A stretch of 64,000 bases of DNA from Ignavibacteria bacterium (GTDB lineage: Bacteria > Elusimicrobiota > Endomicrobiia > PHAN01), in contig JBGFRZ010000032.1 in the NCBI GenBank assembly GCA_041694835.1, forward strand, positions 57-64,056, in the 5' to 3' direction. The notes beneath the pieces are model-generated. The model worked only from the letters and a program-made list of their open reading frames with translations, was not told where the DNA came from and did not search any database. Made by a program: the position numbers and the translations under genes. Shown one piece after another: positions 10,564 to 43,250 of the stretch (positions are counted from its first letter, which is position 1; each line of letters begins with the position of its first letter).

Positions 10564-10892
10564 TTCAAAACACAGAACGCGACGGCGTATTCTTTTACAT
10601 GCGAAAGGGAAATTAAAAAATTATCCGCGGCGATATTTTTGATATAAACCGTTGGACGCCCGTCGGCAGAGTTTCTTATTTCTATATCCTTATGCGATAT
10701 GCTTTTTTTTTCGCATGCTTTCCAGACAGATTCTTTCGCTGCAAACCTTACAGCAAAGTGCTGAGAAAAGTTTTTCTTTGAAAGGCAGTATTTTATTTCC
10801 TTCGCGGTAAAAATCTTTTCAAGAAATTTTTTGCTTTTGATGAGTTTTTCTATTCTTTTTACATCAACTATATCTACACCCACTCCTTTCAT
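10560..10892 (-). CDS. acpS: Holo-[acyl-carrier-protein] synthase
   Basis: N-terminal GVGVDIVDVKRIEK motif; 110 aa. Confidence 0.8.
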   Translation of the reverse strand: MKGVGVDIVDVKRIEKLIKSKKFLEKIFTAKEIKYCLSKKNFSQHFAVRFAAKESVWKACEKKSISHKDIEIRNSADGRPTVYIKNIAADNFLISLSHVKEYAVAFCVLK

Positions 10893-10893
10893 T

Positions 10894-21043: not shown

Positions 21044-21079
21044 GACCTACGGCTTACTCGCCCCGCACCTTTTTATAAT
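21030..21079 (-). pseudogene. tRNA 3'-half fragment (TAAGCCGTAGGTCGTGGGTTCGACCCCCACC) plus an inverted-repeat spacer downstream of the intact tRNA
   Basis: Matches the anticodon-stem 3' strand through the T arm of the adjacent tRNA, diverges at the acceptor stem, overlaps the tilS 5' end. Confidence 0.4.
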
Positions 21080-21151
21080 TTACCAGGGGTGGGGATTGAA
21101 CCCACGACCTACGGCTTATGAGTCCGCTGCTCTACCACTGAGCTACCCTGG
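21080..21151 (-). tRNA. tRNA with anticodon CAT (elongator Met or lysidine-modified Ile2)
   Basis: Minus-strand sequence GCCAGGGTAGCTCAGTGGTAGAGCAGCGGACTCATAAGCCGTAGGTCGTGGGTTCAATCCCCACCCCTGGTA folds as a cloverleaf (D arm GCTC/GAGC, anticodon loop CTCATAA, T loop GGTTCAATCC). Confidence 0.75.
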
Positions 21152-21200
21152 CATTAAAAGGTGCGGGGCAAGTCCGCTGCTCTACCACTGAGCTACCCTG
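21152..21200 (-). pseudogene. tRNA 5'-half fragment (GCAGGGTAGCTCAGTGGTAGAGCAGCGGACT) plus an inverted-repeat spacer upstream of the intact tRNA
   Basis: Near-identical to positions 1-33 of the adjacent tRNA and ends inside the anticodon loop. Confidence 0.45.
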
Positions 21201-21322: not shown

Positions 21323-21347
21323 CTTTTTCAGCGAGCTCATTATACAA
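21323..21347. repeat. Solo terminal-repeat remnant (TTTTCAGCGAGCTCATTATACA) of the roughly 190-bp palindromic element family
   Basis: Matches the right terminal inverted repeat GGTTTTTCAACGAGCTCATTATAA of the copies at 25250, 36759 and 58959. Confidence 0.35.
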
Positions 21348-21376: not shown

Positions 21377-22591
21377 TCAGTATCGGTAGGAAAATCTTAC
21401 TCCGAAGGAGAATGCTGTGAAATTATACGGCAGATACTTTTCGTATTTCATATTCGAGGAAGATGTCTGATTGGCCAAATATAATGTGGTTGTTGTCACA
21501 GGATTCGGCATGTAGTTAAATCCGCATGTGATTATCTGAAGAGCATTCTGTTGTTTTTCTTTTAAAAAATTTCCGTTACCGTCTCTTGCCGGACGGCTGG
21601 AATATGATTTTATTTCATGGTCTAAAATCAAAAAGAGCTCCCATGCTTTTGCAACTGAAAGATATAACGGAAGCGACAAACTCAATTGAGAGAAAGAATA
21701 GTAGTCGGAGTGATAAGGAGAAATTTTTGCCGGCGCGGTTGAGGTGACATCGTCGAAATGAAGATAATTCTGATTAGATGCTCTCATTCCGTACTTTACT
21801 CCGGGCGAGGTAGCAAAGATTCCTGATGCAAGGTCAACCGCGCTGGCTATCGTCACAATCGTATCGCTCTGGAGAGCCCCCGAGTAAAAACTGCCGTCGG
21901 GCTGAACTATGTTGGTGATGACTTTCTGTCTGAAATAATTTTGAAGAGTTATATCAACAGAACCCTTGAGCATTTTCCATTCGCCAGAAAGACCGAGTTG
22001 CGTCAGAGCGTGGTCTTGTTTGCCGGCGGATGATTCCGCCGTGCCGCCTTCAGTGACTCTGAGTTCTGCAAGTAAATCGGTGTAGTTCGGAAAAATCATA
22101 GAATGATATTGAAAATTCCCGGAAAGAGCAACTTCGCCGAATTTTTTCTGAACGCCCAAAAGTCCGCCGAAACGATTTATGTCGTATAGCCCATAACCCC
22201 ATAGTTCGTTTGTGCCCGAACGTCGCAACTGCTTCCAATAATCAATTTGTGATTTTAATCTGAAGTTCCAGGGTGTATCCCAGTGATGTCTGAATACGAC
22301 CATGTGGTCCATCGTCCTATTGGTAAACTGCTCGCCTTCCTGTCTCTTGACTCCCGGCCCGCTATATTTTATCTGATAAAATCCTATAAGAGAATGGGCA
22401 TTGTTAAGTTTTGCTATCATGCCGATGTCATTTGCAAGATGTAGGTCAAAAAACCAACCGCCGCGCGAAGGGATGGATACGCCTTCTGTGATTTGCAAAT
22501 TGTAGTATGGCGCGAATTTTACTTCTGAATATATCGTCGTAAAGAACGACGACAAACAGAGCAACAGGCAAATTTGATATATTTTATACAT
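21377..22591 (-). CDS. Hypothetical outer-membrane beta-barrel protein with a signal peptide
   Basis: N-terminal signal peptide, alternating amphipathic pattern, aromatic C-terminal residues (FSYRY). Confidence 0.45.
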   Translation of the reverse strand: MYKIYQICLLLCLSSFFTTIYSEVKFAPYYNLQITEGVSIPSRGGWFFDLHLANDIGMIAKLNNAHSLIGFYQIKYSGPGVKRQEGEQFTNRTMDHMVVFRHHWDTPWNFRLKSQIDYWKQLRRSGTNELWGYGLYDINRFGGLLGVQKKFGEVALSGNFQYHSMIFPNYTDLLAELRVTEGGTAESSAGKQDHALTQLGLSGEWKMLKGSVDITLQNYFRQKVITNIVQPDGSFYSGALQSDTIVTIASAVDLASGIFATSPGVKYGMRASNQNYLHFDDVTSTAPAKISPYHSDYYSFSQLSLSLPLYLSVAKAWELFLILDHEIKSYSSRPARDGNGNFLKEKQQNALQIITCGFNYMPNPVTTTTLYLANQTSSSNMKYEKYLPYNFTAFSFGVRFSYRY

Positions 22592-22632
22592 AAACTTCTT
22601 TAACCTTCATCATTCATTGTCGTAATTCATCG

Positions 22633-23397
22633 TTAGAAATACCAATGCCATGCAAGAAATGGATGAATCACTATTACACCCTCGGGATAAATGTTCATAC
22701 CAACTTCCACATGCGGCGATGATGCGGTAATGCGGGCCATTAGTTTATTGTATCTGACGCCGTACGCCATTTGACTGACGACAAACCTGTCTTTTGATAT
22801 TTGATGCTCAAGTCCGCCGAAAATAAATATCTCAGACGCTGCGACATTTAAATCGGAGATTTTAAGTCCGCCGCCAAAATCAAGTGGCTCCGACGGTTTA
22901 AAATTCAAATTGACATAAGAGAACTTCGGCCCTATGAATAATCTGTTACTTTGGTCGACTCTTTTAGTTAAAATAAGTCCTACAGTGTAGTCGTAAAGTG
23001 TCGGCTTGACCGTCGAAGTACTTGAAGAATCTCGAGACATCATAGCGGCCGCGACTGCGACGCCGATATTCTGTCCATACTGCCCCTGAATATCTATCTG
23101 AGGAATATAACGTCTTTCATTGAGCACTTTTACTTTCAGATTTAGTCCCGCCCATGTGAAAGGGATAAATGTCGGGAAGAAATTGAATCTTACCTGAGCA
23201 TTTCTGTATGCCGGCACAGGGACGGAGTCCTCCATATTGGAGTGCAGGTCAAATAGAAAATCCGCCGGATTATCGATAAAGCGCAGTCCCAAATTGATGA
23301 TTTCTTGAGGAAGTTTAGGCGAGTCGGAAGCCATGGCCGAAGCGTTTAAAAGTGTAATTATTAAAACCGCCCGGATAACTATTCTCATAATATCCAT
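22633..23397 (-). CDS. Hypothetical outer-membrane beta-barrel protein with a signal peptide
   Basis: Signal peptide MRIVIRAVLIITLLNASAMA; C-terminus ends WHWYF. Confidence 0.45.
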   Translation of the reverse strand: MDIMRIVIRAVLIITLLNASAMASDSPKLPQEIINLGLRFIDNPADFLFDLHSNMEDSVPVPAYRNAQVRFNFFPTFIPFTWAGLNLKVKVLNERRYIPQIDIQGQYGQNIGVAVAAAMMSRDSSSTSTVKPTLYDYTVGLILTKRVDQSNRLFIGPKFSYVNLNFKPSEPLDFGGGLKISDLNVAASEIFIFGGLEHQISKDRFVVSQMAYGVRYNKLMARITASSPHVEVGMNIYPEGVIVIHPFLAWHWYF

Positions 23398-23420
23398 AGA
23401 TGTTTAAGGCAACAAATGAC

Positions 23421-23606
23421 AAATAGAGGATAGAGATGAGAGAACAGAGGTGATAGTTCAAGAGTTGAGAGTTTAGAGTGTAGAGTTGAGAGATGTCGCC
23501 GGGTATCTCTAAACTCTAAACTAAGTTCTCTAAACTTGTCCTCTCGTCTCTGACCCTTGTCCCCTGACCTCTGACCTCTGTCCTCTGCTGCTCTTGTGCA
23601 CTATCA
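23421..23606. repeat. Low-complexity purine/pyrimidine dyad element A
   Basis: Purine arm AATAGAGGATAGAGATGAGAGAACAGAGG..., centre GTCGCCGGG, pyrimidine arm ...CCTCTGACCTCTGTCCTCTGCTGCTCTTGTGCAC. Confidence 0.7.
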
Positions 23607-23608
23607 CT

Positions 23609-25249
23609 TTATAGACGAATAAGTGACTTCGGCGACTTATTTTCGTTGATGCCGCTTGAAAATTTAATCCTGGACAAACCCGATGCCATCTTCGAGGCCA
23701 TTGCGATAACTATATCGGGAGTAAAAATTAAATCGATATTGCGGCCTTCAAAGAAATCTCCTTTAACTTTAAGCAACGCGTCTTTTTGAGTTGGCATCTC
23801 AACCTCTTTGACGAATATTACATTCTGTAAAGCGATTTCTTTGAACAACTTAAAAGGATTCGTCTCACCGCCAACGAAAGTATTTTTTGTCAACAAACCG
23901 CCTGAATTATTGATAGCATACGCCTCTGTCCAGACAGAGACATATTTGGTCTGACCATCCCGTTCTATTTTCATCTCCGGCGATTTCGCCCAGATATACA
24001 ATTCCTCGCCGCCATCATCCATACTCTCGCTTTTTGCTATGGAGTTGTAAGATTCGTTGATTTTCCATCCGTTCAAAAATATTTCAGATTTCATATCGTC
24101 TTTACCGTCGACAACTTTTCTGCGCGCTTTAATTTCATACGAGTCCTTTCTATTAGTCAGCGTCACTTCGGCCGATTCCAACTTGATGTTATCGCCTCTG
24201 TCGAAAAAATATTTGGGCCAATCGGTCATGGCGTCGGGCAGATTTTCGGAAAACTTTATTTTTGCGTTGCAAATATCCATGCGATGGCCTGTCGTGCCCG
24301 AATATGCATCTTTGAAAAAACCCGCATACCGGTACGAATCGCGTTTTGTTATGTTAACAAACTGAATCGTATCCGCCTCCGGCCTTAAAAACTGCTGTTC
24401 AACCCTCACAAGATTTCCGAATCTATCGGTCAAAGTTCTTCCCGAAGATATATCTGCCTGTTTTATCTCGTTCGTGATGTCGCGCGCAACAACTATGTCG
24501 GCTTTCACATCCCTGATCATCTCCCGAAGTTCTTGTTTTATCTGCGCAAGTTCGGAAGCGACATCATCTCTTTTGGTTTTTTCGTCCTCCTCAACTTTTT
24601 CGTCGCTCTTTTCTTCCAATCTCTTTCCCTCTTCGAGCGCTCCATTGAAAGTCTCCTGCCACTCGTTCTGACGTGATTGAAGTTCATCGGCGGACAAAAT
24701 TTTTTCAATGGGCAATCCTGTTTCATCGAGCTTCGCCAAATTGCCCGATTCGACTGTTATGGACTGGCTCATCATTATATCACTGAACTCGACGGCGCCT
24801 TCAAAAACGACAAGCTCGCCGTATGAATCTATCCCGAAATCCGTCCCTCTGACCGAAGCAACCGCAACAGGGGTCACAACCCTGAACTTCGAGCCTCCAG
24901 CCAGTTTTACCTTCGCTCTTATCTTTCCCATTATCAGTGAAAACACACTTTCGTCTTTTGATGGGCTTTTCACTTCCATCTCGGAGTTTTCACGAACATA
25001 TATCTTTGATTCGCCATCAAGAAGCACTGCCTGCGAGTTGGAGGCGGTCTTTATTTTGTCGAGATGCGAAACTCCGTCCCCCATCCTGGCTTCCCGCCAA
25101 ACCCCGGATCGCATGGCCGCCACAGGGCCAACGGTTGCAATTATTTTTACTTCAGAAAATAAATCAGACGCCGCAAACGCACATATAAAAATCGACACTA
25201 AAATTTTATATCTCATAAAAACCTCCCGCTGCGCGGATATATTTTTCAC
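23609..25249 (-). CDS. Secreted FecR-domain protein with a central coiled-coil/charged region
   Basis: Signal peptide; N-terminal FecR-like fold (VTPVAVASVRGTDF); E/K-rich middle segment. Confidence 0.5.
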   Translation of the reverse strand: MKNISAQREVFMRYKILVSIFICAFAASDLFSEVKIIATVGPVAAMRSGVWREARMGDGVSHLDKIKTASNSQAVLLDGESKIYVRENSEMEVKSPSKDESVFSLIMGKIRAKVKLAGGSKFRVVTPVAVASVRGTDFGIDSYGELVVFEGAVEFSDIMMSQSITVESGNLAKLDETGLPIEKILSADELQSRQNEWQETFNGALEEGKRLEEKSDEKVEEDEKTKRDDVASELAQIKQELREMIRDVKADIVVARDITNEIKQADISSGRTLTDRFGNLVRVEQQFLRPEADTIQFVNITKRDSYRYAGFFKDAYSGTTGHRMDICNAKIKFSENLPDAMTDWPKYFFDRGDNIKLESAEVTLTNRKDSYEIKARRKVVDGKDDMKSEIFLNGWKINESYNSIAKSESMDDGGEELYIWAKSPEMKIERDGQTKYVSVWTEAYAINNSGGLLTKNTFVGGETNPFKLFKEIALQNVIFVKEVEMPTQKDALLKVKGDFFEGRNIDLIFTPDIVIAMASKMASGLSRIKFSSGINENKSPKSLIRL

Positions 25250-25438
25250 TATTATGAAATTGTTGAAAAACCCATCTTTTTCACTTAAAGAGCAGTTTTT
25301 TAACGGTTAAAAGTTTCAATCAGACCGCAAAACTCCTCGCTTTGCTCGTCGGACATTGCGGTCTAAACGATTTCAACTTTTAACCTGAAACTGCCAAATC
25401 GTTCAAAAGATTAAGGTTTTTCAACGAGCTCATTATAA
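25250..25438. mobile_element. Roughly 190-bp imperfect-palindrome element, copy 1 (ERIC/Correia-like MITE candidate)
   Basis: Terminal inverted repeats TATTATGAAATTGTTGAAAAACC ... GGTTTTTCAACGAGCTCATTATAA; nested internal stems GGCAGTTTC/GAAACTGCC, GGTTAAAAGTT/AACTTTTAACC, GACCGCAA/TTGCGGTC. Confidence 0.65.
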
Positions 25439-25491
25439 TAGCAAAAAAAGGGACGAATTGCAAGTGATGTAACAAAAAAAAATTATTGAGT

Positions 25492-28400
25492 TTATTTTGG
25501 GGGTGTTTCCGTTTTTTCTTTTATCTTTTTCAAATCATCATCCAGCGTTCCTATATCCGAAAGTTTATCAAGATATAATCGCGTCTGCTCATAATCCTTC
25601 GAACGGTAAGTCTTGTAAATCATTTCGTTTAATATAAGCCCATAAAGATTTTTCGCTCCCTTGTGGTCGGGATTGATTTTGATCGCCTTTTCAAGAAGGG
25701 CGGCGACCTCTTCGGATGCCCCCCGCGTGTACATCACAGATGCATTCTGATAGTAGTTTTCAGCGATCTCTCTTCTTATCGCCGACATCCTGCTTAAGAC
25801 AACAACTCCCGCTAAACTCAGAACGAACGCAACGGCCGCGCCTATCAATAATATCTTTTCCCTTAGATATTTTATCCACCCGCGTGAAGCGACAATGCCG
25901 AGTGATTTTTTCGCGCCTTTGACGGTGGCAGCCGCGTCGTTTTTGAGCTCGCTTATCTTCTTGACTAAAATTTCGGCTTCAGCGGCATCTTTCCGACTTT
26001 CCTTTTTTAACTCGTCCAAAACTTTTCTATACTTGGATGCTATCTCAAGCTCGAATTTTTCACACTCCTGTTTTTTAATTTCAAGAAACCGCTTTTGCTT
26101 TTCCTCGATATCGACACGGAGATTTTCCATATACTTTCTTTCATTATCGAATTTTTGTCTCTCAATTTTTTCCATCTCAAGAATTTCTTTTATTTTGACT
26201 TCGGCCTGACCGAGTTTGTTTTCAAGGAGCTCTTTTTCCGAAGAAACGCGGTCAATGTCAGACAAAAATTTAGCCCTATCCTTCTCAAGGGATTTTATTT
26301 TTCTTTCAAGACCGTCGATTAAAATGGCGTTTTTGCCATCCATTTTGATTGTCTGTTCGTTTAAGCGGGATTTCTCATCGCACAACTTTTTGTTTTCCAC
26401 TTCGACCGCTGTCAACTTCGCTTGCAGTTTCTGTGTTTCTTCAACTTTCGACTGGAAGCGGGCGTTGCCCTCGTACAATTCTTTTTGCGTGGAAATGACC
26501 TTGTCCTCAAGGAATTTGACCCTTTCTTCAAGTGTTCGTCTGATGTTTTCGCTCTTTTCATTTTTTTCAGCATCCGACCTTCTCTGCGTTGCATCCAATT
26601 TCTTTAATTCGTCTTCAAACTCCGATTTTTGTCTTGTAAGACCTGCCTTCAATTTTTCTGCAAGTTCTTCCGTTCTCCTTAACTTCTTCTCAATCGCCTC
26701 TTTTGATGAGAACAGAGATTCTTTCTCGCTTGAAATCAGCGATATTTCTTCCCGCAATTTATTCAATTCTTCTTTGAGAGTTTTTATCCGCGAAGAGCTC
26801 TCCTGTTCGGCGGTCATCAACCCTTTTAGAAGCGATTCTTTCTCGAAAATAGATGTCGCCATATCGGATATTATTCCGTCTTTTTCCTTTATTGCATCCT
26901 GATACTTGGATATATCCACCTTTAACTTTCCGACGTTTTCGGAAAGCTTGTCTATAAGCGAATTTTTTATACTCTGAACCTCTTCGAATTTCAACTGTTC
27001 CGACAAGATGCGTTTTTCAAATGAGATACGTTCCGATTTCATTGTCTTCTCCCACTCATCGCGCTCCTTCTGCCAATCATCCAGAAGCATCTCTCTCTTT
27101 CTTTCAATATCGTCCAAGCCCGAAAGCTTCTTTTTAAGCTCATTTATTTCCAGATCAGCCGCTCTCTTTGAATCCGAAAGTTCGCTCAAGAGTGAACCGA
27201 CTCTATTTTTTAGATTAGCGTTACTTTCCGACAACTCCATTTTTTCCTTCTCGCGCACTTCCGCCCCGGCTGACAACTGCTGCGAAATCAATTTATTTTC
27301 TTTTATAACGCTTTCTATTATTTTTGTCTTGGCCGCCAACTCAGCGTCCGACTGCTCCAGATCGCTTCTAACAGCGGAAAGAGCGTTTTTAAGTTCTTGA
27401 ATATTTGAACTCATCTGTTCAATTTTCTGAGTATGCCTTTTTTCGGCGGAGGCCAGTTTTTCTTCAAACTCTATTTTCTCTTTCTCTAGCGTCGAAGCGA
27501 GAGCTCGAGCCGACTCGTTCAGACGGGCATTTTCTTCTTCATGTTGTCTCTGTCTATCGGATAATTTTTCTTCCAATTCTTTTATCTTTGCCTTCGCAGT
27601 CACAATGGCGGTTTCGACTGTCCTTCTTTCATCTTTTTCCTTTGACAGGGCATTTTTATGATTTTCTATCTCAGAACTAAGTTGGGCAACAATTTTTTCA
27701 TTGTTTTGTTTTATCGATTCCCGTTCGACAATCAGCGATGAAATTTTCTTGCCCAATTCCGACTCTCTCTTTTCGTATTCTGCGCGGATAACCTGTTTTT
27801 CTTCTTCGAACATTGAAAATATATTAGAGCGATCCCGCTGGAATTCCTCCGCCTTTTTCTTGAGCAAACCTATCTGTTCGTCTCTCTGGTACTGATAGTT
27901 CACGGCTTCCAAAAGAAGTCTTTTTCTTTCTTCTTCAAGATATATGATTTTGTTTTGGAGTTCCAGATTTTCCGAGTTTTTCTTTTCCTTATCCGACAAA
28001 ACCGCGGTGTATAATTCGTCAATCTTTGTTATATCGGCGTTTAATCTCTCTATCTCCTTGTTTTTTGAATCTATCTCGGTGTTGTGCCTGTTTAACTCGC
28101 TGTTTCTCTCAAGCTCTATCGAATATAACCTGTGTTTTAATTCTCCTTCGGCAACGGCTCTTTCCTGAAGTGAAACGTTCATTCTCTCTATGGTTTTCTT
28201 GAGCTCTTCAGCGGCAAGTTCCTTCTGCTCCAAAGAGATTTTTTTCTCCGACAGCAACCGGTTTATTCTCTCTTCCGTTTCATTGCGAACTTCTTCGGTT
28301 GCTCTTTGAAGTCTGTCATTCAGAGAGTTTATCTCGTCCTCTTTCGCCGACAAAACAGACTTTATTTCCTTTATTTCCATTTCTCTGGCGACAAGTGCCG

Positions 28401-29907
28401 AGGATGAACGTTGATACTCTTGTTTTGTTTTGACCAGTTCACCGATATTTAAGTCAATTTGTTTTTGAATCGCATCAAGTTCGTCATTTCGCGATCTGAT
28501 TATGGACGCGTATCTCTCTTCTTCTTTTTTGCTTTTTTCGGACAGACGAGATGTTTCTATAAGGAGAGTTTCTTCCCATCGCTTTTCTTTCTCTGTGATA
28601 ACCTTCTCTAATTTCGCTTTTTCCTCTTCTAGTTGTTTTATTTTTCCGAACTTTGCTATGCCATCGTTTTTCTCAACCTCGAAAAGCTTTTGTGTTTCGC
28701 TGAGCGATGCTCTTAAGTTTAGAATATCGCCGGAAAGTTGTTTTATTTCTCCTTCCCTTGTTTGTCTGTTATTCTCGTATTCCGATATCACTTCATCGTA
28801 TCTTTTCTTCAAAGATAAAACTTCCTCGGAAAAAGTTTTCTGCCACTGTGCCGATATTTCGCTTTGTCGCTCCATAAGCTTTTCGTTTTCGGCGACAAGT
28901 TCAACATTCTTCTGCTCAGCGGAAAGTCTTGCCGATTTTTCCTCACTCAACTGTTTTTCTATTATCGAAAGGGTTTCCATTATACGCTCTATATGCGATT
29001 CCGTCTCGACTTTAAGCGACTCTTCCCTCTTCGAGTAATCCTCTTTTATTTTTTCCCAAGATGCCTTTTCCTCTTCCCATCTTTTCCGCCATGAAGCTCT
29101 TTCTTCTTCAAGGGCCTGTCTTAACTTTTGATGCTCAAGTTCGTAATGGTAAAGCTTTTCCTCGGCGTTTATGCGTTTTTGCTCCTCGTCAATCCTTTTT
29201 TCCTCAAGTTTCGTTATTGTTTCAATTTTTTCAAGAAGACTCTCTTTTGTTTGAGACAGTTCATGGTCTTTTTTCTGAATTATTTTTTCCTGGTAGAGTT
29301 TTTCATCGGAAAGGCTTAATTCAAGTCGATTCGTTTTTTGTTCAAGATTGTTTATAGTTTCCTGAAGGCGATGTTTATCTTTAAGATAATTTTGTTCTGA
29401 TAGCAGAAGTTTTTCCTTTATGGAGAGTATCTCTTCTTCCTTATTTGACACCATCTCTTTCAATCGTTCCTCGCTCTTGCGGGCCTCCTCTTTGAAATTC
29501 GCAAGTTGATTTTGTATTTCCAGAAATTTTGAACGCGCGTTCTCCGCTTCCTGCCTGTATTTCCTTATTTCATCTTCAACCATGCCCCATTTTTTTTGCT
29601 GCTGTTTTTTCTGCGTCTCAAACTCTATGGCCTGAACTTTAATGTGACCAATTGAAGCCTCCCTCTCTTCGGCAAGTTTCGCTTGAAGCTGTTTTACTTT
29701 CTCTTCGGCGAGGCCAAGCTGATTTTTAAGCTGCAACACCTCGTTTTCCTTCGACTGAAACACTTTATTCCATTGCTCCTTCTCTCTGGCGGACCTTTGA
29801 CGGATAAGTCTAATGGTCTCTTCCGCCATCTGTTTCTCTGTGTTAAGAAGTTCGTTTACTACACTCTCCGGGGATGAAAATTTCAACTCGTCTCTTTCGT
29901 TTTCCAT
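25492..29907 (-). CDS. Giant (1471-aa) tail-anchored coiled-coil protein: about 1330-aa E/K/Q-rich coiled coil, one C-terminal TM helix, short TPR-like C-terminal domain
   Basis: Heptad-rich low-complexity sequence, no signal peptide, TM helix ILLIGAAVAFVLSLAGVVVLS near the C-terminus. Confidence 0.7.
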   Translation of the reverse strand: MENERDELKFSSPESVVNELLNTEKQMAEETIRLIRQRSAREKEQWNKVFQSKENEVLQLKNQLGLAEEKVKQLQAKLAEEREASIGHIKVQAIEFETQKKQQQKKWGMVEDEIRKYRQEAENARSKFLEIQNQLANFKEEARKSEERLKEMVSNKEEEILSIKEKLLLSEQNYLKDKHRLQETINNLEQKTNRLELSLSDEKLYQEKIIQKKDHELSQTKESLLEKIETITKLEEKRIDEEQKRINAEEKLYHYELEHQKLRQALEEERASWRKRWEEEKASWEKIKEDYSKREESLKVETESHIERIMETLSIIEKQLSEEKSARLSAEQKNVELVAENEKLMERQSEISAQWQKTFSEEVLSLKKRYDEVISEYENNRQTREGEIKQLSGDILNLRASLSETQKLFEVEKNDGIAKFGKIKQLEEEKAKLEKVITEKEKRWEETLLIETSRLSEKSKKEEERYASIIRSRNDELDAIQKQIDLNIGELVKTKQEYQRSSSALVAREMEIKEIKSVLSAKEDEINSLNDRLQRATEEVRNETEERINRLLSEKKISLEQKELAAEELKKTIERMNVSLQERAVAEGELKHRLYSIELERNSELNRHNTEIDSKNKEIERLNADITKIDELYTAVLSDKEKKNSENLELQNKIIYLEEERKRLLLEAVNYQYQRDEQIGLLKKKAEEFQRDRSNIFSMFEEEKQVIRAEYEKRESELGKKISSLIVERESIKQNNEKIVAQLSSEIENHKNALSKEKDERRTVETAIVTAKAKIKELEEKLSDRQRQHEEENARLNESARALASTLEKEKIEFEEKLASAEKRHTQKIEQMSSNIQELKNALSAVRSDLEQSDAELAAKTKIIESVIKENKLISQQLSAGAEVREKEKMELSESNANLKNRVGSLLSELSDSKRAADLEINELKKKLSGLDDIERKREMLLDDWQKERDEWEKTMKSERISFEKRILSEQLKFEEVQSIKNSLIDKLSENVGKLKVDISKYQDAIKEKDGIISDMATSIFEKESLLKGLMTAEQESSSRIKTLKEELNKLREEISLISSEKESLFSSKEAIEKKLRRTEELAEKLKAGLTRQKSEFEDELKKLDATQRRSDAEKNEKSENIRRTLEERVKFLEDKVISTQKELYEGNARFQSKVEETQKLQAKLTAVEVENKKLCDEKSRLNEQTIKMDGKNAILIDGLERKIKSLEKDRAKFLSDIDRVSSEKELLENKLGQAEVKIKEILEMEKIERQKFDNERKYMENLRVDIEEKQKRFLEIKKQECEKFELEIASKYRKVLDELKKESRKDAAEAEILVKKISELKNDAAATVKGAKKSLGIVASRGWIKYLREKILLIGAAVAFVLSLAGVVVLSRMSAIRREIAENYYQNASVMYTRGASEEVAALLEKAIKINPDHKGAKNLYGLILNEMIYKTYRSKDYEQTRLYLDKLSDIGTLDDDLKKIKEKTETPPK

Positions 29908-29959
29908 ATCTCACCTCTCGTAAACGCAGCGATTAGGAGATTGGGGAATGTAAAAAATT

Positions 29960-30046
29960 CCTTTCCCGCCCCGCCTCTCCTCTATTCTCCCGCCTCTATC
30001 TTCTAAACTAAGTTCTCTGAACTTTCCAGTGCGTGCACTGGATAGC
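29960..30046. repeat. Partial low-complexity element B (pyrimidine arm plus CTAAACTAAGTTCTCTGAACTT motif shared with element A)
   Basis: CCTCTCCTCTATTCTCCCGCCTCTATCTTCTAAACTAAGTTCTCTGAACTTT. Confidence 0.45.
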
Positions 30047-30061
30047 GAAACATCAACAATC

Positions 30062-31507
30062 TCATTTTGCCAGTTCTGTTTTTGCTTCCGAAATATCCAC
30101 TCCGGTATTTTCATATTTTCTGATTATCCTTCTTAAGATATCTTTTTTTTCTCTTTCCGAAATACCGCGGTCCTTCAGTTGATAATAATATCGCATTGAA
30201 GTGTCGAACTCAATCTTTCTGTTGTCGATATCGGATTTTGCCGTAGAAATTCTCGGCGCTTTCTTTTCAACCGAAATTTCACGAGGCGGAATATATTCCA
30301 CAGCCGGCGACCTTTCCGCTTTCGGTTCTTCCTTTTCTTTTTCAGACGCAAGTAGTGATTCTAGTTCTTTCTTTAATCTGTCTTTCTCGTTCTCCAACCT
30401 CTCTACTTCTTTCAGGAGTTTTTCATTCTGGGACTTTTCCGTGAACAATTTTTCACTCAACTCTTTTAGTTTTTTGCTTTCGGGCGGTTTTCCGAATCTC
30501 ATATTAAGTGAAATCCTCTGAATGTCTCCGGAGTTCTTTATCCCAACCAAAGGGAATATATAAGAATAATTGAATCCAAACCATTTGAGTGAATGGCCGA
30601 AACCGACAGCAAACCTTCTCAGTTCCCTGCTTCCAAATGTCATGCCGCATCTTATGGCCGTTGCTCCATATTCTCCGAAATCAAAATGCCTTTCAGCCCC
30701 GAATGAAAACACATAGTCTAAGATGTTATTCGAGTACTCCTGAGCTGAAAAATCAGCGGAGAGATTTATCAGGGTCGTGTTCATTGCAAAGCCAATCGTT
30801 GATTTCATTTTTTTCGTGTCACCCGAGTTTTCAAACGACATATCCGGCTGATTGATGTCCTTGATAGAGAGCCCGATTTTGTAGTTTTCAGAGATGTTAT
30901 ACAAGATACCGGCATCCAGAGAGAAGAGCGTCTTCGACTTCCCAGTGAGATGGTCGGTTATGCCCCGTTTTGCTTTGCCAGTTTCATCCACGGAATTAAA
31001 GGAATAATCATCGGTTCCGATAGATTTTCTTAAAATTTTAGCAGTCAATCCGAAAACAATTTTTTTATATATTCCCGAGAGTGAAAAAGCGTAAGTCTCA
31101 TCCTTGTAGAACTCTCCGCCCAATAAAAAATATCCGAAAGCTGGCACATAACCCTTGTAAGGCAGCCCCGCCGCCAAATATACTTCCGACAATTTAGAGC
31201 CATCGGTTAATTTTGGATAAAGCGTTGTATAGGATGTGAATATCTCCGATGTTTTTATATTGTAAAGGCCGGCCGGGTTGTAGAAAATCGACTCGATGTC
31301 ATCCCCTGAAGCAACATAAGTCCCGCATACCCCGGAAGATCGGGAAGCATAAAGACAGGGGATAGTGAATAGCGAATAGCATATAGCGAATAGAGAATAG
31401 AGAATAGAGAATAGAGGATAGAGATTAGAGGTTAGGAAATGGAAATTATTACTCCTCTCCCTATCCGCTCGTCTATCTTCTCTCATCTCCGACCTCTGTC
31501 CTCTCAT
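30062..31507 (-). CDS. Putative outer-membrane beta-barrel protein (NPAGL-type N-terminal motif) with a C-terminal charged coiled-coil extension; start codon uncertain
   Basis: IFYNPAGL motif; beta-barrel-like middle; about 150-aa K/E-rich C-terminus. The first 50 or so codons are read through repeat element C and there is no in-frame ATG or GTG after the repeat. Confidence 0.45.
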   Translation of the reverse strand: MRGQRSEMREDRRADRERSNNFHFLTSNLYPLFSILYSLFAICYSLFTIPCLYASRSSGVCGTYVASGDDIESIFYNPAGLYNIKTSEIFTSYTTLYPKLTDGSKLSEVYLAAGLPYKGYVPAFGYFLLGGEFYKDETYAFSLSGIYKKIVFGLTAKILRKSIGTDDYSFNSVDETGKAKRGITDHLTGKSKTLFSLDAGILYNISENYKIGLSIKDINQPDMSFENSGDTKKMKSTIGFAMNTTLINLSADFSAQEYSNNILDYVFSFGAERHFDFGEYGATAIRCGMTFGSRELRRFAVGFGHSLKWFGFNYSYIFPLVGIKNSGDIQRISLNMRFGKPPESKKLKELSEKLFTEKSQNEKLLKEVERLENEKDRLKKELESLLASEKEKEEPKAERSPAVEYIPPREISVEKKAPRISTAKSDIDNRKIEFDTSMRYYYQLKDRGISEREKKDILRRIIRKYENTGVDISEAKTELAK

Positions 31508-31520
31508 CTCTGACCTCTCA
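31359..31520. repeat. Low-complexity purine/pyrimidine dyad element C
   Basis: GATAGTGAATAGCGAATAGCATATAGCGAATAGAGAATAGAG...GAGGTTAGGAAATGGAAATT...CTCTCATCTCCGACCTCTGTCCTCTCATCTCTGACCTCTCA. Confidence 0.7.
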
Positions 31521-31535
31521 CATTAGTACCCTCTT

Positions 31536-34500
31536 TCATCTTGATACCGTCACAGTTCCGTTTATTACTTTGTCGTCGGATTCAATCTGATAGATATAAA
31601 TTCCCGAGGGCACTTTGTTTCCGAATTCGTCGTCGCCATCCCACCTTAAAGATGTTTCACGGTTTGGTCCCCTTTTATTCAGTTTTTTGACAAACCGCCC
31701 CATTTTGTCGAATATAAATCCGACGACTCTTTCTTCAATTCCCGGCGGGCCGTCAAAATTTATAATCAAAAAATCATTTTTATTGTCGCCGTTCGGGGTT
31801 ATTATTTTCGGATAAACGTCATCTTTTCCTACCGAGAATGTTGAGCGATTCGTTAGTTTTAGTTGAAATTTTCCCAGAACTGACGCTGCCACTGAAATCG
31901 TCTTGTTGAATCTGTCGACGGCACCACCGAATCTGATCCATCTCACTCCGTTGAACCAGTAAACGGCATACTCGCTTTCATAAGAACCCGGGGACATCAC
32001 CGCAGAACCCCTGTCAAAGTAAGTAAACGATATATTGAAAGTTTGTTCTTTTGGAACATTTTTTTCTTTATTTGATTTTATATCCCGAAGTGCTACAACA
32101 AAAGATTTTACCACGCGGCCGATTTTTTCCTCAGGCACTTCTGTAATCCTGAGCACTGAGTTCTCAGGCAAAATGGCCGATGTCTCAACAAACAAGTCTT
32201 TATTGTCGCTCATTACTATTATAACCGGCGCAGTCTTCGATGCCACTATTGCCGACGGCAGGCTTTCGTTTGAATATATATCCACAGCCTTTATCGTGTA
32301 ATAATAAACGTTTTTTTTTGTGTCTTGAGAAAATTCGTTCGACTTTAACGGAAGCATCGTTATTTTTTCGTATATCCCATCCATCGAAGTGCTCCTGTAA
32401 ACAAGATAACCGTCGATGTCGTAAATCGGGCTCAGGTCCTCGTTGTATTTAACTTCATCCCAAAATATTTGAAAAATCCCGCCCGAAAAACTCCCGCGAA
32501 CTCCGGTGGGAGCAAGTGGGGGCATTTTATCGACGACCTTATCGGTCATAACGTTGACAATATCAGTAGGGGCGGTTATTATTCCGTCGCCATTGAAGCC
32601 ATATAGACGGTAGTAGTATGTGGTGGAATGGCTCAAATTTCCATCGGTATAAGTTGAAGAAGAACCAGATATATTGTCGCTTACAACTGAAAAAAATAAG
32701 CCGTCAAGGGATCTCTCGAGTCTAAACTTGCTGGAGCCGCCCGTCGGAGATTGCCAGGAGAGCGTAATTGAATTTTTTGTTTTGGCTATACTCCCCAAAT
32801 TTCCGGGCGGATTGGCCAGGGTGTATTTTGAAACTACCGATGAACCGAATGAAACGCCGCTTGCATTCCCCGCTTTGATATATCTTGAATATTGTGTATT
32901 GGGTTCTAAACCGATTTCGTTCCAAGATATTGTTTCGTTTCCTTCAAGATTTTTCAACAGATGATTATCACCGGCTCTATAAATCTGATAATATGTCGCA
33001 GATGATGTTATCTCCCATGTCCAGTTGATCGCCACCGTGCTAACGGCTACCCCGCGAAAACCCAACGGCTCTGAAGGAATTGCCGGAAGTGTGATAGTTG
33101 AGATTGTTGTATCATATATCGTGGGTATACCCTCGCTATTGAACGCCTGAACCTTGTAGTAATATGTAGTCGCAGGCTCTAACCCTGCCGAGTCAGTAAA
33201 TGTTGTGCCCGTTTGGTTGTTTGCAAATGAGCTCAAGGTAAAGGTAGAGGTGAAGAAGTTATTCGTTGAGCGCAATACTCCCCATCTGGTTGATGCCGGA
33301 TTTCCGTTATTGCTCCATGTGATTTCTATTGAATGTGAAGTCCTCTTTAAAACATAACTATCAACGGGTGGCATCGCCATGGTATATCTTGAAGCGACGT
33401 TGGATGAAGATATTGATACGCTATTATATGCCGCCACATACCTGCTATAATTAGTATTAGCGGAAAAATTAGTTTCAAGCCAGATCGTCGTTCCGTGCGG
33501 CAACTCTGATAGCAATGCGTTTGTGGAACTAAATATCCTGAAACCATCTTCGTCAGGGGAGTTGTCTTTCCATGACCATAAAATCGAACCTGTCGACAAA
33601 ACCATGCCGCTAAACTCCGAAGGAGCGGATGGAACTCCGATGGGGCGGGTTGAAACGACGGAGGAAAAGGCACTTATAAAAATCTGCGGTGGAGCATCGT
33701 AAGAGTTCATCTTGTAAAAATATGTCGTTCCGTTGGTGACAGAGGTATCAACATAAGTATTGCTACGCGTAGTTCCTATAAGGGAATAGGTATTTCCGTC
33801 GGTTGAACGGTGAATTTCGTAGTAATCGAAGTCAAGATAACCGAGCTGCCCGAGCATATCATTCCAAAAAAGCTCAACCAACCCGCTTGAAGCCACTGAT
33901 TTGAGCCCGGTTGGAGGAGCGGGAACAATATCAAGGGCATAGCTGAACGCCTGTGTGAGCGACACAGTCGGCTCATCGATGGGAGAGATATTTCCGTCGG
34001 CGTCTTTTGATTTAATTGAAAAATAATATGTTGAAGAAGGGAAAAGACCGGAAATTCCGGTAATCTCTTCGGAGCCTGGAGATTGGGGGGACGGTGTATT
34101 ATTAAGCGAAGTGGCGACACTCCACCATGCAGTGGTATCTCCCAAAAGTGAGTTTATGGAAAACGTGGCGTATTTTATGATGTACTCTGAAACTTTCTTG
34201 TTCTGAGGAATATCTCCGGGGGCAATCCATGAGAGTTTGATCTCCCCTTCGCTCGCCCCTGTTACAGCAACAATGGATGTAACCGCTCTCGGCGGATAAA
34301 TATCCGCGATATAGTGTGAATTTTCATCCGACCATACGCTCTTCAACAAGCCCGAATCTATTGAAGCAACTGAAAAATAATATGTCGTTCTTATGGCAAG
34401 TTTTTTTATCAATATACTGTTAGTCGTGCCGATTCTTTTGGGCCTCGGATAGTTTCCCGAAAACGGTGTCGCCCATTGCGGACTCACGACATAACTTGAA

Positions 34501-36581
34501 GGGTTTATGCTGAAGGGGGCCGTCGCCATCCTGACAAGATAGTTGAGTGACTGCTGAGGTGTTTTATCATCGGAACCGTCTTGAAAAGATATGACCAGAT
34601 TTTCGTCGATATATTCTGCGATTGGCCCTGGCGGAGCTGATGGCGCAGCGTTGATTTTACCTGAATCTCTGTATGTGTTTTTGTAAATTCTTATCAAATT
34701 CGAAATGCCCGAAGACGGCGACCCCGAAACGACGAGATCCAGATCCCCATCGTTGTCTATGTCGCCGAAAACGACCGATGAGAGCTGGAGACCGAGATTC
34801 TGACCAAGAATCTCCTGGTCGGAATAAAACGTTCCGGAAGAATTCTTAAACAATATAAATCTCAAAAGACCGTTATTGTCCCTCCCTGTCACAACAATAT
34901 CCGGCCATCCGTCGGTGTTGTAATCGCCGAAGGCAAGCGAGCTATTGTCAACACCTGCAGCCAAACCCATTGGCTCCTGGTCGAGGCTAAAAACACCGTT
35001 TGTATTCTTAAAAAGAATAAGCCGTCTACCAGATGCTGTTCCATCAATTGTTCCGCTTACCGCTATATCCAGATCGCCGTCGAGGTCGTAGTCGCAAAAA
35101 GCCACAGAGCCGTTCTCAAGACCGATATTGACACCTAAGGGTTCTTGGTCGATTAAAAAAGTTCCGGAAGAATTCCTAAATAAAATGAATCTCCTGTTGC
35201 CTGTCGTATCTCTGCCTATGGCAGCAAGGTCAACCCATCCATCTTTGTTGTAGTCGCCGACGGACAGTGCCGAGTTGGAAAGCCCTGTCAAATCAAAACG
35301 CATCGTAAAACTTGAATTGTTGTTCTCATACACCCTTAAGTATCTGTTGTTGGGCAAACTACCAGGTCCGATGCCGCTTACGACAATGTCGTTGTCACCG
35401 TCATTGTCGAAATCCATCAAAACAACACACCCCATGACAAATCCGTCGGCGGAACCCATTGGTTCGCTGTCCAGAACAAACGGTGGAGTGCCGGAGGTGT
35501 TTCTGTAAACAAAAAATCTCCTGGTTGAGCCGTCAGGTGAACCGACCGCGATCTTGTCATCTTTACCGTCGGAATTTATGTCGCCGAAATAGAGGGAACT
35601 AGCCTGAAGGCCGACGGGAAATTCCTGCCACAACGAAAAATTTCCGACAGAATTTCTGTATATAACGTTTTTTCTGCTCACACCATCAAAGCCGCTGACA
35701 GCCAAATCTATGTAGCCGTCTGTGTCTATATCCGAAAAAGAAAAGCCGTTTTCGCTCGACAAAACATCACGAAGCCCCTCGAATGTTTGTGAGAGAAAAA
35801 AAGACGACGATACTGCAGTCGCCGTAGATGACCAGTTTGACTGGTTAGAGTTTTCGTCGAATGCAGATATCCATATATAGTGGGTGGCCGACGGGAGGAG
35901 CGAGGTGAGCATGAAGACATGGCTTGTGGCTGGTGAAAAATTCGATGATATAGAGATTTGATAAGTCGCTGTTTGCGGTGTGTCGGAAGGATTCGTTGAA
36001 TATCTTATTAAAAATCCGCCGCCGACTACCGAGCCGTTGTAAACATCATCGCCGGGAGCCGTCCATGTAAGTAAAATCTGGGCGGACAGCGTCGCCGAAA
36101 GATTCGTGATCTGCCCGGGAGGCAGTAAATCCCTCTGCGCCCAAGATGTAGCGGCATTAGAGATTGGAGAAAAGTTGGCAGGCGGAGATGATGTCCAAAT
36201 TCTGAAAAAGTATGTCGCCCCGCCGGTCAAACCGGTTATTGTGTGGCTTTGCGGCGCGCCGGAATTAACATTTGATGTGGATATTCTTATTTGCGCCGAA
36301 GCGGTTGACCAAACAACGTCGGAATCCTGCGAATGCTGTATGAAATATGTCGAACCAACAGGGAGGGAAGATGGACCGGGATACATCCATCCCAACACAA
36401 CCCCGCCTTCGGACTGCCCCCGGGTGGCGTTTAGATTTGTAACGGGGGACGGCTGGGCCGAAAGATAAAAAGGCCCCGCTATTAAAAAAAAGACAATTAG
36501 CGCTCCGTGACAAAAATAAAAAGCCCCCGCAAACCCGCGGTGGCTTGTAGATAAATGACTGACAAAATTAATTTTTATCAT
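31536..36581 (-). CDS. Large (1681-aa) secreted FG-GAP/fibronectin-III repeat protein with a T9SS type-B (CHU_C / gliding-motility-associated) C-terminal sorting domain
   Basis: At least six DxDxDGxxD FG-GAP calcium-binding repeats (e.g. FGDINSDGKDDKIAVG, GDIDNDGDLDLVVSG); Fn3-like segments; C-terminus ITPNGDNKNDFLIINF...LRWDGDDEFGNKVPSGIYIYQI typical of type-B sorting domains. Confidence 0.75.
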   Translation of the reverse strand: MIKINFVSHLSTSHRGFAGAFYFCHGALIVFFLIAGPFYLSAQPSPVTNLNATRGQSEGGVVLGWMYPGPSSLPVGSTYFIQHSQDSDVVWSTASAQIRISTSNVNSGAPQSHTITGLTGGATYFFRIWTSSPPANFSPISNAATSWAQRDLLPPGQITNLSATLSAQILLTWTAPGDDVYNGSVVGGGFLIRYSTNPSDTPQTATYQISISSNFSPATSHVFMLTSLLPSATHYIWISAFDENSNQSNWSSTATAVSSSFFLSQTFEGLRDVLSSENGFSFSDIDTDGYIDLAVSGFDGVSRKNVIYRNSVGNFSLWQEFPVGLQASSLYFGDINSDGKDDKIAVGSPDGSTRRFFVYRNTSGTPPFVLDSEPMGSADGFVMGCVVLMDFDNDGDNDIVVSGIGPGSLPNNRYLRVYENNNSSFTMRFDLTGLSNSALSVGDYNKDGWVDLAAIGRDTTGNRRFILFRNSSGTFLIDQEPLGVNIGLENGSVAFCDYDLDGDLDIAVSGTIDGTASGRRLILFKNTNGVFSLDQEPMGLAAGVDNSSLAFGDYNTDGWPDIVVTGRDNNGLLRFILFKNSSGTFYSDQEILGQNLGLQLSSVVFGDIDNDGDLDLVVSGSPSSGISNLIRIYKNTYRDSGKINAAPSAPPGPIAEYIDENLVISFQDGSDDKTPQQSLNYLVRMATAPFSINPSSYVVSPQWATPFSGNYPRPKRIGTTNSILIKKLAIRTTYYFSVASIDSGLLKSVWSDENSHYIADIYPPRAVTSIVAVTGASEGEIKLSWIAPGDIPQNKKVSEYIIKYATFSINSLLGDTTAWWSVATSLNNTPSPQSPGSEEITGISGLFPSSTYYFSIKSKDADGNISPIDEPTVSLTQAFSYALDIVPAPPTGLKSVASSGLVELFWNDMLGQLGYLDFDYYEIHRSTDGNTYSLIGTTRSNTYVDTSVTNGTTYFYKMNSYDAPPQIFISAFSSVVSTRPIGVPSAPSEFSGMVLSTGSILWSWKDNSPDEDGFRIFSSTNALLSELPHGTTIWLETNFSANTNYSRYVAAYNSVSISSSNVASRYTMAMPPVDSYVLKRTSHSIEITWSNNGNPASTRWGVLRSTNNFFTSTFTLSSFANNQTGTTFTDSAGLEPATTYYYKVQAFNSEGIPTIYDTTISTITLPAIPSEPLGFRGVAVSTVAINWTWEITSSATYYQIYRAGDNHLLKNLEGNETISWNEIGLEPNTQYSRYIKAGNASGVSFGSSVVSKYTLANPPGNLGSIAKTKNSITLSWQSPTGGSSKFRLERSLDGLFFSVVSDNISGSSSTYTDGNLSHSTTYYYRLYGFNGDGIITAPTDIVNVMTDKVVDKMPPLAPTGVRGSFSGGIFQIFWDEVKYNEDLSPIYDIDGYLVYRSTSMDGIYEKITMLPLKSNEFSQDTKKNVYYYTIKAVDIYSNESLPSAIVASKTAPVIIVMSDNKDLFVETSAILPENSVLRITEVPEEKIGRVVKSFVVALRDIKSNKEKNVPKEQTFNISFTYFDRGSAVMSPGSYESEYAVYWFNGVRWIRFGGAVDRFNKTISVAASVLGKFQLKLTNRSTFSVGKDDVYPKIITPNGDNKNDFLIINFDGPPGIEERVVGFIFDKMGRFVKKLNKRGPNRETSLRWDGDDEFGNKVPSGIYIYQIESDDKVINGTVTVSR

Positions 36582-36758
36582 TGTTTCGGTAGCCCAGCCG
36601 GCATCCGTTCAAACCCGAACCCCGTCGCCTTTCAACGACGGATTGTCCCATAACGCGGGATTTAGCCCTGTTGGCTTTGCGTCCCCCGGTTTCCCGGCAT
36701 CCCGACACAAAATCGGAACGTTCCCATATGACCAGCAGGGAAGGTTTGCCTTTGTCGC

Positions 36759-36946
36759 TATAATGAGATTATTGAAAAACCCATCTTTTTCACTTAAAGG
36801 GCAGTTTCTTAACGGTTAAAAGTTTCAATCAGACCGCAAAACTCCTCGCTTTGCTCGTCAGACATTGCGGTCTAAACGATTTCAACTTTTAACCTGAAAC
36901 TGCCAAATCGTTCAAAAGATTAAGGTTTTTCAACGAGCTCATAATA
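36759..36946. mobile_element. Roughly 190-bp imperfect-palindrome element, copy 2
   Basis: Differs from copy 1 at only a few positions; terminal repeats TATAATGAGATTATTGAAAAACC ... GGTTTTTCAACGAGCTCATAATA. Confidence 0.65.
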
Positions 36947-43005: not shown

Positions 43006-43250
43006 AGTGCACAAGAGCGCAAGAGCACAAGTCAGAGGACAGAGTTCAGGGAACAGAGAACAGAGGTCAGAGGCTAGAGGCGAGGGACAAGAGGTTAGGG
43101 AATGGAAATTTTTATTCAATTTCTTGTCCCCTATCCTCTATTCTCTATACGCTATTCTCTCACCTCTGACCTCTCACCTCTCATCTCTCATCTCTATCCT
43201 CTATTCACTATTCGCTATTCGCTGTCCTACAGTCTCTAATCTCTGCTGCT
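43006..43250. repeat. Low-complexity purine/pyrimidine dyad element E
   Basis: GCACAAGAGCGCAAGAGCACAAGTCAGAGGACAGAG...GGTTAGGGAATGGAAATTTTTATTC...TCACCTCTGACCTCTCACCTCTCATCTC...CTATTCACTATTCGCTATTCGC; the central GGAAATGGAAATT motif is shared with element C. Confidence 0.7.

Follow-up and report, generated by a model that had tools for sequence, protein, structure and literature searches.

The window analysed here is a 64-kb stretch of contig JBGFRZ010000032.1 (assembly GCA_041694835.1), placed by GTDB in the Elusimicrobiota, in which six minus-strand open reading frames (ORFs), g1 to g6, run from position 36581 down to 21377 and encode predicted cell-envelope proteins. Only the last three recur together in other genomes: g4, which encodes a FecR-domain protein, and g5 and g6, which encode two predicted outer-membrane β-barrels, form an unannotated module that is restricted to Elusimicrobiota across the sampled genomes. 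The reading that we favour, if with some reserve, is that the region consists of three independent envelope units: a g1-g2 pair preceded by a riboswitch match (36760-30062), the coiled-coil-like g3, and the g4-g5-g6 trio (25216-21377). What the analysis demonstrates is the gene content, the synteny, the family matches and the folds; all interactions, localisations and regulatory effects described below are proposals. A first-pass annotation, made by inspection of the sequence, had suggested that all six products, whose ORFs were verified as annotated, could form one envelope-spanning assembly.

Gene neighbourhoods argue otherwise. The contexts of FecR homologues and 38 loci anchored on g6, about 40 loci in all, were compared by tblastn and by clustering of all ORFs (L001-L051 denote the comparison loci fetched here). 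Three families recur: G6 (40 loci), G5 (34) and FecR (29). The next commonest family appears in 7. G5 lies directly ahead of G6 at every locus with upstream sequence; FecR precedes G5 in 29 loci, with one to three unannotated ORFs between them in three of these. The genes around the trio differ widely among loci. Neither g1 nor g2 has a homologue at any of the sampled loci, both remaining singletons, and the g3 family has three members: the window copy and one each in L001 and L007. Since only FecR, g5 and g6 recur, g1-g6 are not one conserved system, and the proposed six-part assembly is not supported on this count; the conserved neighbourhood that it called for exists for FecR, g5 and g6, is absent for g1 and g2, and extends to g3 at two loci. 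The conserved unit is g4-g5-g6, joined by a coiled-coil-like neighbour only in the closest subclade. The shared orientation of g1-g6 is uninformative, because every main ORF of the window lies on the minus strand, plus-strand ORFs of at least 150 amino acids (aa) occurring only nested inside them.

The first gene of the trio, g4, could start at a GTG (23609-25249, minus strand, 546 aa) or at an ATG (23609-25216, 535 aa); the ATG at 25216 is more likely because the GTG at 25249 lies within a repeat element and the database copy is 535 aa long. The product comprises a signal peptide, a FecR domain at residues 64-154 (PF04773, 47.2 bits, cut-off 24), a linker that is charged and helical and, at the C-terminus, a conserved domain of about 270 aa without a family match, which bears out the secreted FecR-domain protein of the first-pass annotation. 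About 20 full-length homologues were found, all named ones from Elusimicrobia or Endomicrobiia, and the FecR-family profile has no solved-structure relative in the PDB. The protein contains neither an anti-sigma domain nor a transmembrane (TM) segment beyond its N-terminal signal segment, and no sigma factor or TonB-dependent receptor is encoded among the neighbours.

The other two genes, g5 (22633-23397, minus, 254 aa) and g6 (21377-22591, minus, 404 aa), belong to families without a Pfam or NCBIfam model and were modelled with AlphaFold2 on family alignments. The g6 model (predicted local distance difference test score, pLDDT, 85.9; predicted template-modelling score, pTM, 0.77) consists of a signal helix and 16 long strands, and the sequence ends in ...FSYRY; the signal peptide, the C-terminal aromatic residue and the 16 strands are those expected of a general porin. 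Its top Foldseek matches are the 16-18-strand porins and exporters OmpT, Omp32, OmpF, PorB, OprO and AlgE, at template-modelling scores (TM-scores) of at most 0.5 and identities of 8-12%; the likeness to 16-strand general porins is one of fold class only, and g6 is, as modelled, porin-like. In the g5 model (pLDDT 84.3), 10 strands come after a signal helix and two N-terminal helices; the sequence ends in ...WHWYF, and the model matches FapF, OmpA and Ail-type barrels with low TM-scores. Outer-membrane barrels are the only Foldseek matches for either model, in agreement with the earlier prediction that both are transmembrane barrels rather than soluble proteins. G5 and G6 were also considered as divergent members of the PorV/PorP group, a possibility that was rejected: profile-profile comparison with the PorV-like family gave probabilities of 0.3% for G6 and 0.15% for G5.

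Every homologue of g4, g5 or g6 with a source name comes from Elusimicrobia/Endomicrobiia (Elusimicrobiota) metagenome-assembled genomes (MAGs). The 38 loci of the g6-anchored genome scan are nearly all from Elusimicrobiota, the closest being an Endomicrobiia MAG at 61% identity. Six loci with trio or barrel genes (L021, L030, L033, L034, L036 and L039) carry Deltaproteobacteria, Sumerlaeota, Clostridia or Nitrospinae MAG labels; these may reflect mis-binning or mislabelling of Elusimicrobiota contigs, or a true spread of the module.

Variants of the trio tie the 16-strand barrel to a periplasmic partner, because FecR adjacency persists across divergence, tandem copies keep a FecR-like and a G6-like gene together, and G6 acquires an N-terminal region in two loci. 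In L008, L012 and L014, a second FecR-like plus G6-like pair, about 25% identical to the first and without a G5 copy, lies in tandem downstream of G6. It is followed by a protein of about 1600 aa with a C-terminus resembling a type IX C-terminal domain (CTD), and then by a PorV/PorQ-family barrel in L012 and L014; L008 ends inside the large gene. In L033 (770-2692) and L034 (1646-3622), which have no FecR gene upstream, G6 is 640-658 aa long and carries an extra N-terminal region of about 250 aa; this region, scanned in the L034 copy, matches a periplasmic LpoB/CsgG-like domain. By analogy, g5 and g6 could form an outer-membrane channel or scaffold on whose periplasmic face the FecR-domain protein would dock, as on other outer-membrane barrels.

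Genes of cyclic di-GMP (c-di-GMP) signalling are common near the trio, given a phosphodiesterase in five loci and GGDEF genes in another. Among L003, L013, L015, L017, L019 and L023, five encode a GAF plus HD-type phosphodiesterase after an ATPase of the type II secretion system/type IV pilus (T2SS/T4P) type with an MshEN domain; L015 ends inside the ATPase gene. The ATPase gene lies directly 3' of G6 in five of these six loci and about 3 kb downstream in L019. In L004, two GGDEF genes lie upstream of the trio.

The g1-g2 pair is of a different nature. The 1681-aa product of g1 (31536-36581, minus) matches the Pfam domains FG-GAP_3, fn3 and CHU_C, as the first-pass annotation had recognised. 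A hydrophobic N-terminal segment (residues 17-35, by hydropathy alone), a candidate signal peptide, is followed by domains of the fn3 type, an FG-GAP region, more fn3 repeats and, at the C-terminus, CHU_C, the type-B sorting domain of type IX secretion systems (T9SS). Residues 1591-1669 match CHU_C (PF13585) with 34.8 bits (cut-off 27), and the corresponding TIGR04131 model falls slightly below its cut-off (34.0 versus 35 bits); a PNGDxKND motif is present in the sequence.

Directly downstream, 28 nucleotides (nt) past the g1 stop codon, begins g2 (30062-31507, minus, 481 aa). In T9SS type-B systems the cargo gene is directly followed by a porP/sprF-like gene needed for its secretion (PMC12618676), and the cargo binds its PorP-like protein (PMC9143113). 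The arrangement of g1 and g2 reproduces this order, so the remark that no part of the region matches a named system needs correction. The g2 product matches the NCBIfam PorV/PorQ model NF033709 over positions 13-326 of 326 (2e-12; 47.4 bits, cut-off 90) and the PorP/SprF model TIGR03519 over positions 112-291 only (3e-8; 33.3 bits, cut-off 90.55); a Pfam scan gave no PF11751 match, which 22 of 59 scanned relatives do have. All 59 relatives match PorV/PorQ (E<=0.001, best 3.9e-28), 55 match 'PorV2' and 44 match PorP/SprF. An exhaustive search with the barrel region of g2 retrieved 914 family cluster representatives at E<=1e-3, and the family profile has a sole match among solved structures, PorV (6h3i_F, E=1.8e-6). 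Judged by these matches, g2 is a predicted outer-membrane barrel (about residues 50-340), related to PorV/PorQ/PorP at the superfamily level.

C-terminal to the barrel, 140 aa form an extension in which a charged helical stretch is combined with a conserved motif of about 50 aa; the motif occupies the last ~50 residues and is found, and repeated, in relatives. The barrel-like character and the charged extension agree with the first-pass annotation, but the extension is not unusual: it is the family norm, since 120 of the best 150 family representatives carry at least 100 aa (median 194 aa), often with TPR or LysM.

A metagenome scan with g2 as a single protein found relatives that are only 27-30% identical. 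Five unrelated loci found in this way (L047-L051) nevertheless share the gene order: the gene for an fn3/CHU_C protein (40-42 bits), whose C-terminus is very similar to that of g1, lies directly upstream of one for a TPR-extended g2-like barrel. Across all fetched loci, a PorV-like barrel follows 11 of 12 CTD-bearing proteins, and two of these partner barrels, with 190 and 186 bits, exceed the NCBIfam cut-off for PorV/PorQ. The g1 product would be a large FG-GAP/fn3 adhesin-like protein exported by Sec and bearing a T9SS type-B CTD. By analogy with SprB-SprF and PG1035-PorP, g2 would take up this domain at the outer membrane and hold g1 on the surface, acting as its putative cognate receptor or anchor, and the periplasmic extension of g2 may tether the pair to periplasmic partners.

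Between the pair and the trio lies g3 (25492-29907, minus), which encodes 1471 aa. Hydropathy reveals a single strongly hydrophobic segment at residues 1352-1370, a predicted TM helix, followed by a tail of about 100 aa; residues 1-1340 contain one proline and are rich in glutamate (18%), lysine (14%) and leucine (11%), a composition that fits a coiled coil. The single C-terminal TM helix of the first-pass annotation is therefore retained. Self-BLAST detects no internal duplication, and exact-sequence look-ups with g3, as with g2 and g4, matched no record. The relatives in L001 and L007 are 403-411 aa long, lack a TM segment, lie upstream of FecR and align to g3 residues 3-362 and 509-643. The earlier idea that the periplasmic tail of g3 contacts the g2 extension gains no support; both relatives that can be checked lack the TM segment and the tail. 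The g3 product may be a cytoplasmic coiled-coil-like protein, an expanded form of the short soluble protein of L001 and L007, which only here, among the genomes checked, has reached 1471 aa and acquired a membrane anchor.

The leader of g1 contains a match to the c-di-GMP-I (GEMM-I) riboswitch aptamer (Rfam RF01051) at 36585-36760 on the minus strand, the sense strand of g1. It spans the full model (1-87), scoring 39.5 bits where the gathering score is 35 (E=3.1e-4 over the entire window), and its 3' end lies 4 nt ahead of the g1 ATG. The aptamer core is close to identical with the consensus, and 15 of 15 consensus pairs are G-C, A-U or G-U. The two hairpins of the aptamer contain insertions of 55 and 56 nt, well outside the usual GEMM-I size of about 10-13 nt beyond the modelled stems; under constrained folding each insertion forms three hairpins, one with a GAAA loop. 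A terminator-like hairpin at 36544-36522 (minus, -14.7 kcal/mol), followed by the UUUUUAUUUUU U-run to ~36510, lies within g1 codons 14-24 and folds independently of the aptamer, no competing pairing being detected. We consider it likely that 36585-36760 is a genuine, predicted GEMM-I-derived element, and the c-di-GMP level may set the amount of the g1-g2 pair made.

Two classes of repeats punctuate the region. One is a 196-nt element, bounded by terminal inverted repeats of 23 nt and containing a long internal hairpin, that looks like a recently active miniature inverted-repeat transposable element (MITE); its three window copies are 97-99% identical and all on the minus strand: at 36751-36946, between a promoter-like site and the riboswitch match; at 25249-25433, in the g3-g4 spacer, with a promoter-like site at 25463-25435; and at 58957-59143, in a run of histidine-biosynthesis genes between hisB and the next gene. 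The first 21 nt of the element also occur at 21324-21344, upstream of a tRNA-Met gene. The second class has a purine-rich arm of AGAGG/CAGAG units followed by its pyrimidine-rich complement and forms hairpins in gene spacers. It is found on the minus strand at the g1-g2 junction (31375-31535) and within the g4-g5 spacer (23398-23608), and also at 29975-30024, ~43090-43223 and 56381-57090. The junction copy codes for the signal-peptide region of g2, its purine arm specifying the charged N-terminus and its pyrimidine arm the hydrophobic core; in P0072, a relative with 74% identity, the signal peptide is ordinary and has the same LYA/SRSSG ending. Promoter-like sites precede the MITE-like elements in both the g1 leader and the g3-g4 spacer, and separate transcription of g1-g2 and g4-g6 is plausible.

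Possible elements of a T9SS-like pathway appear elsewhere in the sample. A protein with an SprA-like region, 1740-1757 aa long (cut at 1506 aa in L029), is encoded beside a divergent LptF/LptG pair and 2-5 kb from the trio in three Elusimicrobiota loci: L016 (12955-18174), L022 (15216-20489) and L029 (16601-21119). The SprA/Sov-like region of the L022 copy matches TIGR04189 (5.4e-25; 86.9 bits, cut-off 200), the other two being its homologues; none of the three copies has a Pfam match, and neither the L022 sequence nor a three-sequence profile has a PDB match. Pairs of CTD cargo and PorV-like barrel border the trio in the window as well as in L011, L012, L014, L022, L028, L029 and L043, and in L034 a fragment of a type-A CTD protein lies directly ahead of G5-G6; in some six distinct arrangements, a PorV-like barrel or CTD cargo is no more than two genes away from the trio. 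The window has a second PorV-like ORF (51692-52633, minus, 313 aa) that matches the hidden Markov model of the g2 family with E=4.7e-11 and has no Pfam hit. With two PorV-like genes in the 64-kb window and about ten in 600 kb of flanks, the background is about one per 30-60 kb, and the presence of one near the trio in about a quarter of loci is close to the chance expectation; enrichment of PorV-like genes near the trio was therefore dropped as evidence.

After the second PorV-like ORF, the window encodes two O-antigen-ligase-like (Wzy_C) proteins with TPR tails (49130-51538 and 46803-49124, minus). L047 encodes a Wzy_C/TPR protein by Pfam (10113-12722) about 4 kb downstream of its pair of CHU_C cargo and PorV-like barrel, and the C-terminus of a protein in L048 (6503-9031) is near-identical to that of the L047 protein.

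Several observations weigh against the reading favoured here. The short g3 relatives adjoin the trio in two different contexts, and within that subclade there may be a functional link between g3 and g4-g5-g6. Several loci have PorV-like barrels, CTD cargo and the SprA-like gene in the vicinity of the trio; the 64-kb window contains no gene of the T9SS core (SprA/Sov or PorK/L/M/N), and g2 stays below the curated cut-offs of both the PorV/PorQ and the PorP/SprF models. Transcription-unit boundaries are drawn from weak consensus matches, with 29 promoter-like sites observed and 26.7 expected by chance, and the suggested role of the trio as a porin-like outer-membrane complex with a periplasmic partner is argued by analogy. 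The riboswitch match is atypical in its 55- and 56-nt insertions and, folded under constraint, is less stable than the unconstrained fold (-55.6 versus -67.4 kcal/mol); folding identifies no clear expression platform and no terminator or antiterminator coupled to the aptamer, and Rfam scans with a core-motif search found no second c-di-GMP-I riboswitch in about 850 kb of related loci.

A single envelope-spanning assembly, in which an inner-membrane g3 would use its periplasmic tail to reach both the extension of g2 and the barrels g5 and g6, g1 being surface cargo, would explain the physical adjacency of g1-g6, the g3 relatives upstream of FecR in L001 and L007 and the PorV-like barrels within two genes of the trio. 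It is nevertheless very unlikely: g1 and g2 are missing from the trio loci and g3 is found at only two, both g3 relatives are devoid of the TM segment and tail that such a bridge requires, and g1-g2-type pairs exist without the trio in L047-L051. Nor does the window contain a motility or cytoskeletal gene, and nothing found supports the cytoskeletal or motility link that had been suggested. A narrower alternative makes the trio a phylum-specific part of T9SS-like surface sorting in Elusimicrobiota, e.g., an outer-membrane/periplasmic scaffold, and the g1-g2 adjacency functional. The cargo-barrel pairs flanking the trio in the window and seven other loci, the SprA/Sov-like protein in L016, L022 and L029 and the type-A CTD protein ahead of G5-G6 in L034 would all fit, but PorV-like genes are so dense that their proximity in about a quarter of loci is near chance, most trio loci have no T9SS-like neighbour and the G5 and G6 profiles are unrelated to the PorV-like family; we regard this alternative as improbable. 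The fuller version, in which Elusimicrobiota possess their own T9SS-like CTD pathway with an SprA-like translocon and many extended PorV-like barrels, the trio being a dedicated part and one pair being placed under elaborated GEMM-I control, is likewise a long shot. The simplest view of g5 and g6, namely that the phylum has in them its major general porin plus a small structural protein of the outer membrane, and that the FecR-protein is an unrelated periplasmic or surface protein that happens to be co-transcribed, is possible though doubtful. It accounts for the best fold matches of g6 (the 16-strand general porins OmpT, Omp32, OmpF and PorB), for the resemblance of g5 to small barrels of the OmpA, Ail and OmpX type and for the occurrence of G5-G6 without FecR in L015, L017, L019 and L029. 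Yet FecR stands ahead of G5-G6 in 29 loci, at 27-47% identity and in many contexts, second tandem copies retain the FecR-like and G6-like pairing, and in the FecR-less L034 G6 is fused to a different periplasmic domain.

The same weighing applies to the leader of g1. If the riboswitch match were a decayed relic or a chance hit, g1-g2 would be expressed without c-di-GMP control. Its score exceeds the gathering score by just 4.5 bits, both hairpins carry long insertions, the fold of lowest energy is not that of the aptamer, an inserted repeat element lies right at the 5' edge of the match, homologous cargo-barrel pairs elsewhere lack a riboswitch and no competing antiterminator pairing was detected. 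Against this, the conserved core nucleotides are nearly complete with every consensus pair standard, and the match lies on the sense strand in the 5' leader of an adhesin-like gene, a typical c-di-GMP target, c-di-GMP-I riboswitches ahead of adhesin genes being documented (PMC7423583, PMC6200980); the three-hairpin layout shared by both insertions, one with a GAAA loop, looks like elaboration rather than decay. A relic or chance hit is thus unlikely, and we retain a GEMM-I-derived element ahead of the g1-g2 unit.

Both flanks of the region hold housekeeping genes: tRNA-Met, TilS, Hpt, FtsH, FolE and FolP downstream, and a PD-(D/E)XK nuclease, PriA, SpoIID, QueH and RuvB upstream. The tRNA-Met gene at 21080-21153 (minus), with a 15-nt inverted repeat on both sides, splits a second, near-identical tRNA-Met copy (window 21026-21200), the 5' and 3' halves of which are separated and the 3' acceptor strand of which is absent. 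The arrangement looks as if a small insertion bearing a tRNA had entered an older tRNA-Met at its anticodon loop; at the same place L001, a relative, has one intact tRNA-Met gene.

Work on the T9SS has so far centred on Bacteroidota, and the literature library searched yielded nothing relevant on this system in Elusimicrobia. If real, the cargo-barrel pairs and the SprA-like protein in Elusimicrobiota widen the known range of CTD-based surface sorting. The riboswitch match would be a direct link between c-di-GMP signalling and a cargo-shuttle pair and, as a branched structural variant of GEMM-I, may interest specialists in RNA structure. The FecR/G5/G6 trio offers a well-delimited target for structural and localisation work in a poorly studied phylum. 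What had been a vague 'novel envelope system' is now resolved into testable pieces.

Each unit can be set beside known systems. The trio recalls FecR-FecA pairs in that the gene for a Pfam FecR-domain protein sits beside genes for outer-membrane barrels. It differs in having no cytoplasmic anti-sigma domain, no extracytoplasmic function (ECF) sigma gene and no TonB-dependent 22-strand transducer, its barrels having 10 and 16 strands, and in the additional conserved 270-aa C-terminal domain of g4, which has no known relative. LipL45, Lsa33 and Lsa19 of Leptospira are, like g4, secreted FecR-domain proteins without an anti-sigma part, and their NCBIfam models match g4 weakly (7.9e-13 to 1.6e-5) over the FecR domain and the following helical stretch; by contrast, g4 scores far under the cut-off (48 versus 420 bits) and its C-terminal domain differs. 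Barrel partners are not known for these Leptospira proteins.

The closest counterparts of the riboswitch match are the GEMM-I elements at cbpA of Bacillus thuringiensis and at surface-protein genes of Clostridioides difficile, in which, as here, the aptamer core and its pairing are found in the 5' leader of a large adhesin-like gene. The g1 element departs from them in the 55- and 56-nt three-hairpin branches of both hairpins and in its position 4 nt from the start codon, without a recognisable Shine-Dalgarno sequence or a coupled terminator.

The g1-g2 pair itself resembles SprB-SprF and Fjoh_3952-Fjoh_3951 of Flavobacterium johnsoniae and PG1035-PorP of Porphyromonas gingivalis, in each of which the gene for a large, repeat-rich type-B/CHU_C surface protein is followed by that for a PorV/PorQ/PorP-related barrel; the 28-nt gap between g1 and g2 fits co-expression of the pair. 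Unlike these Bacteroidota pairs, g1-g2 resides in an Elusimicrobiota host and additionally stands behind a c-di-GMP riboswitch match, and g2, compared with PorP/SprF and PorV/PorQ, is a member of a large family of its own, in which a C-terminal TPR, LysM or helical extension of 100-700 aa is usual. The g1-g2 pair is a predicted type-B cargo-shuttle pair of a known kind; what is new is the unusual phylum, the extended shuttle family and the riboswitch match ahead of it.

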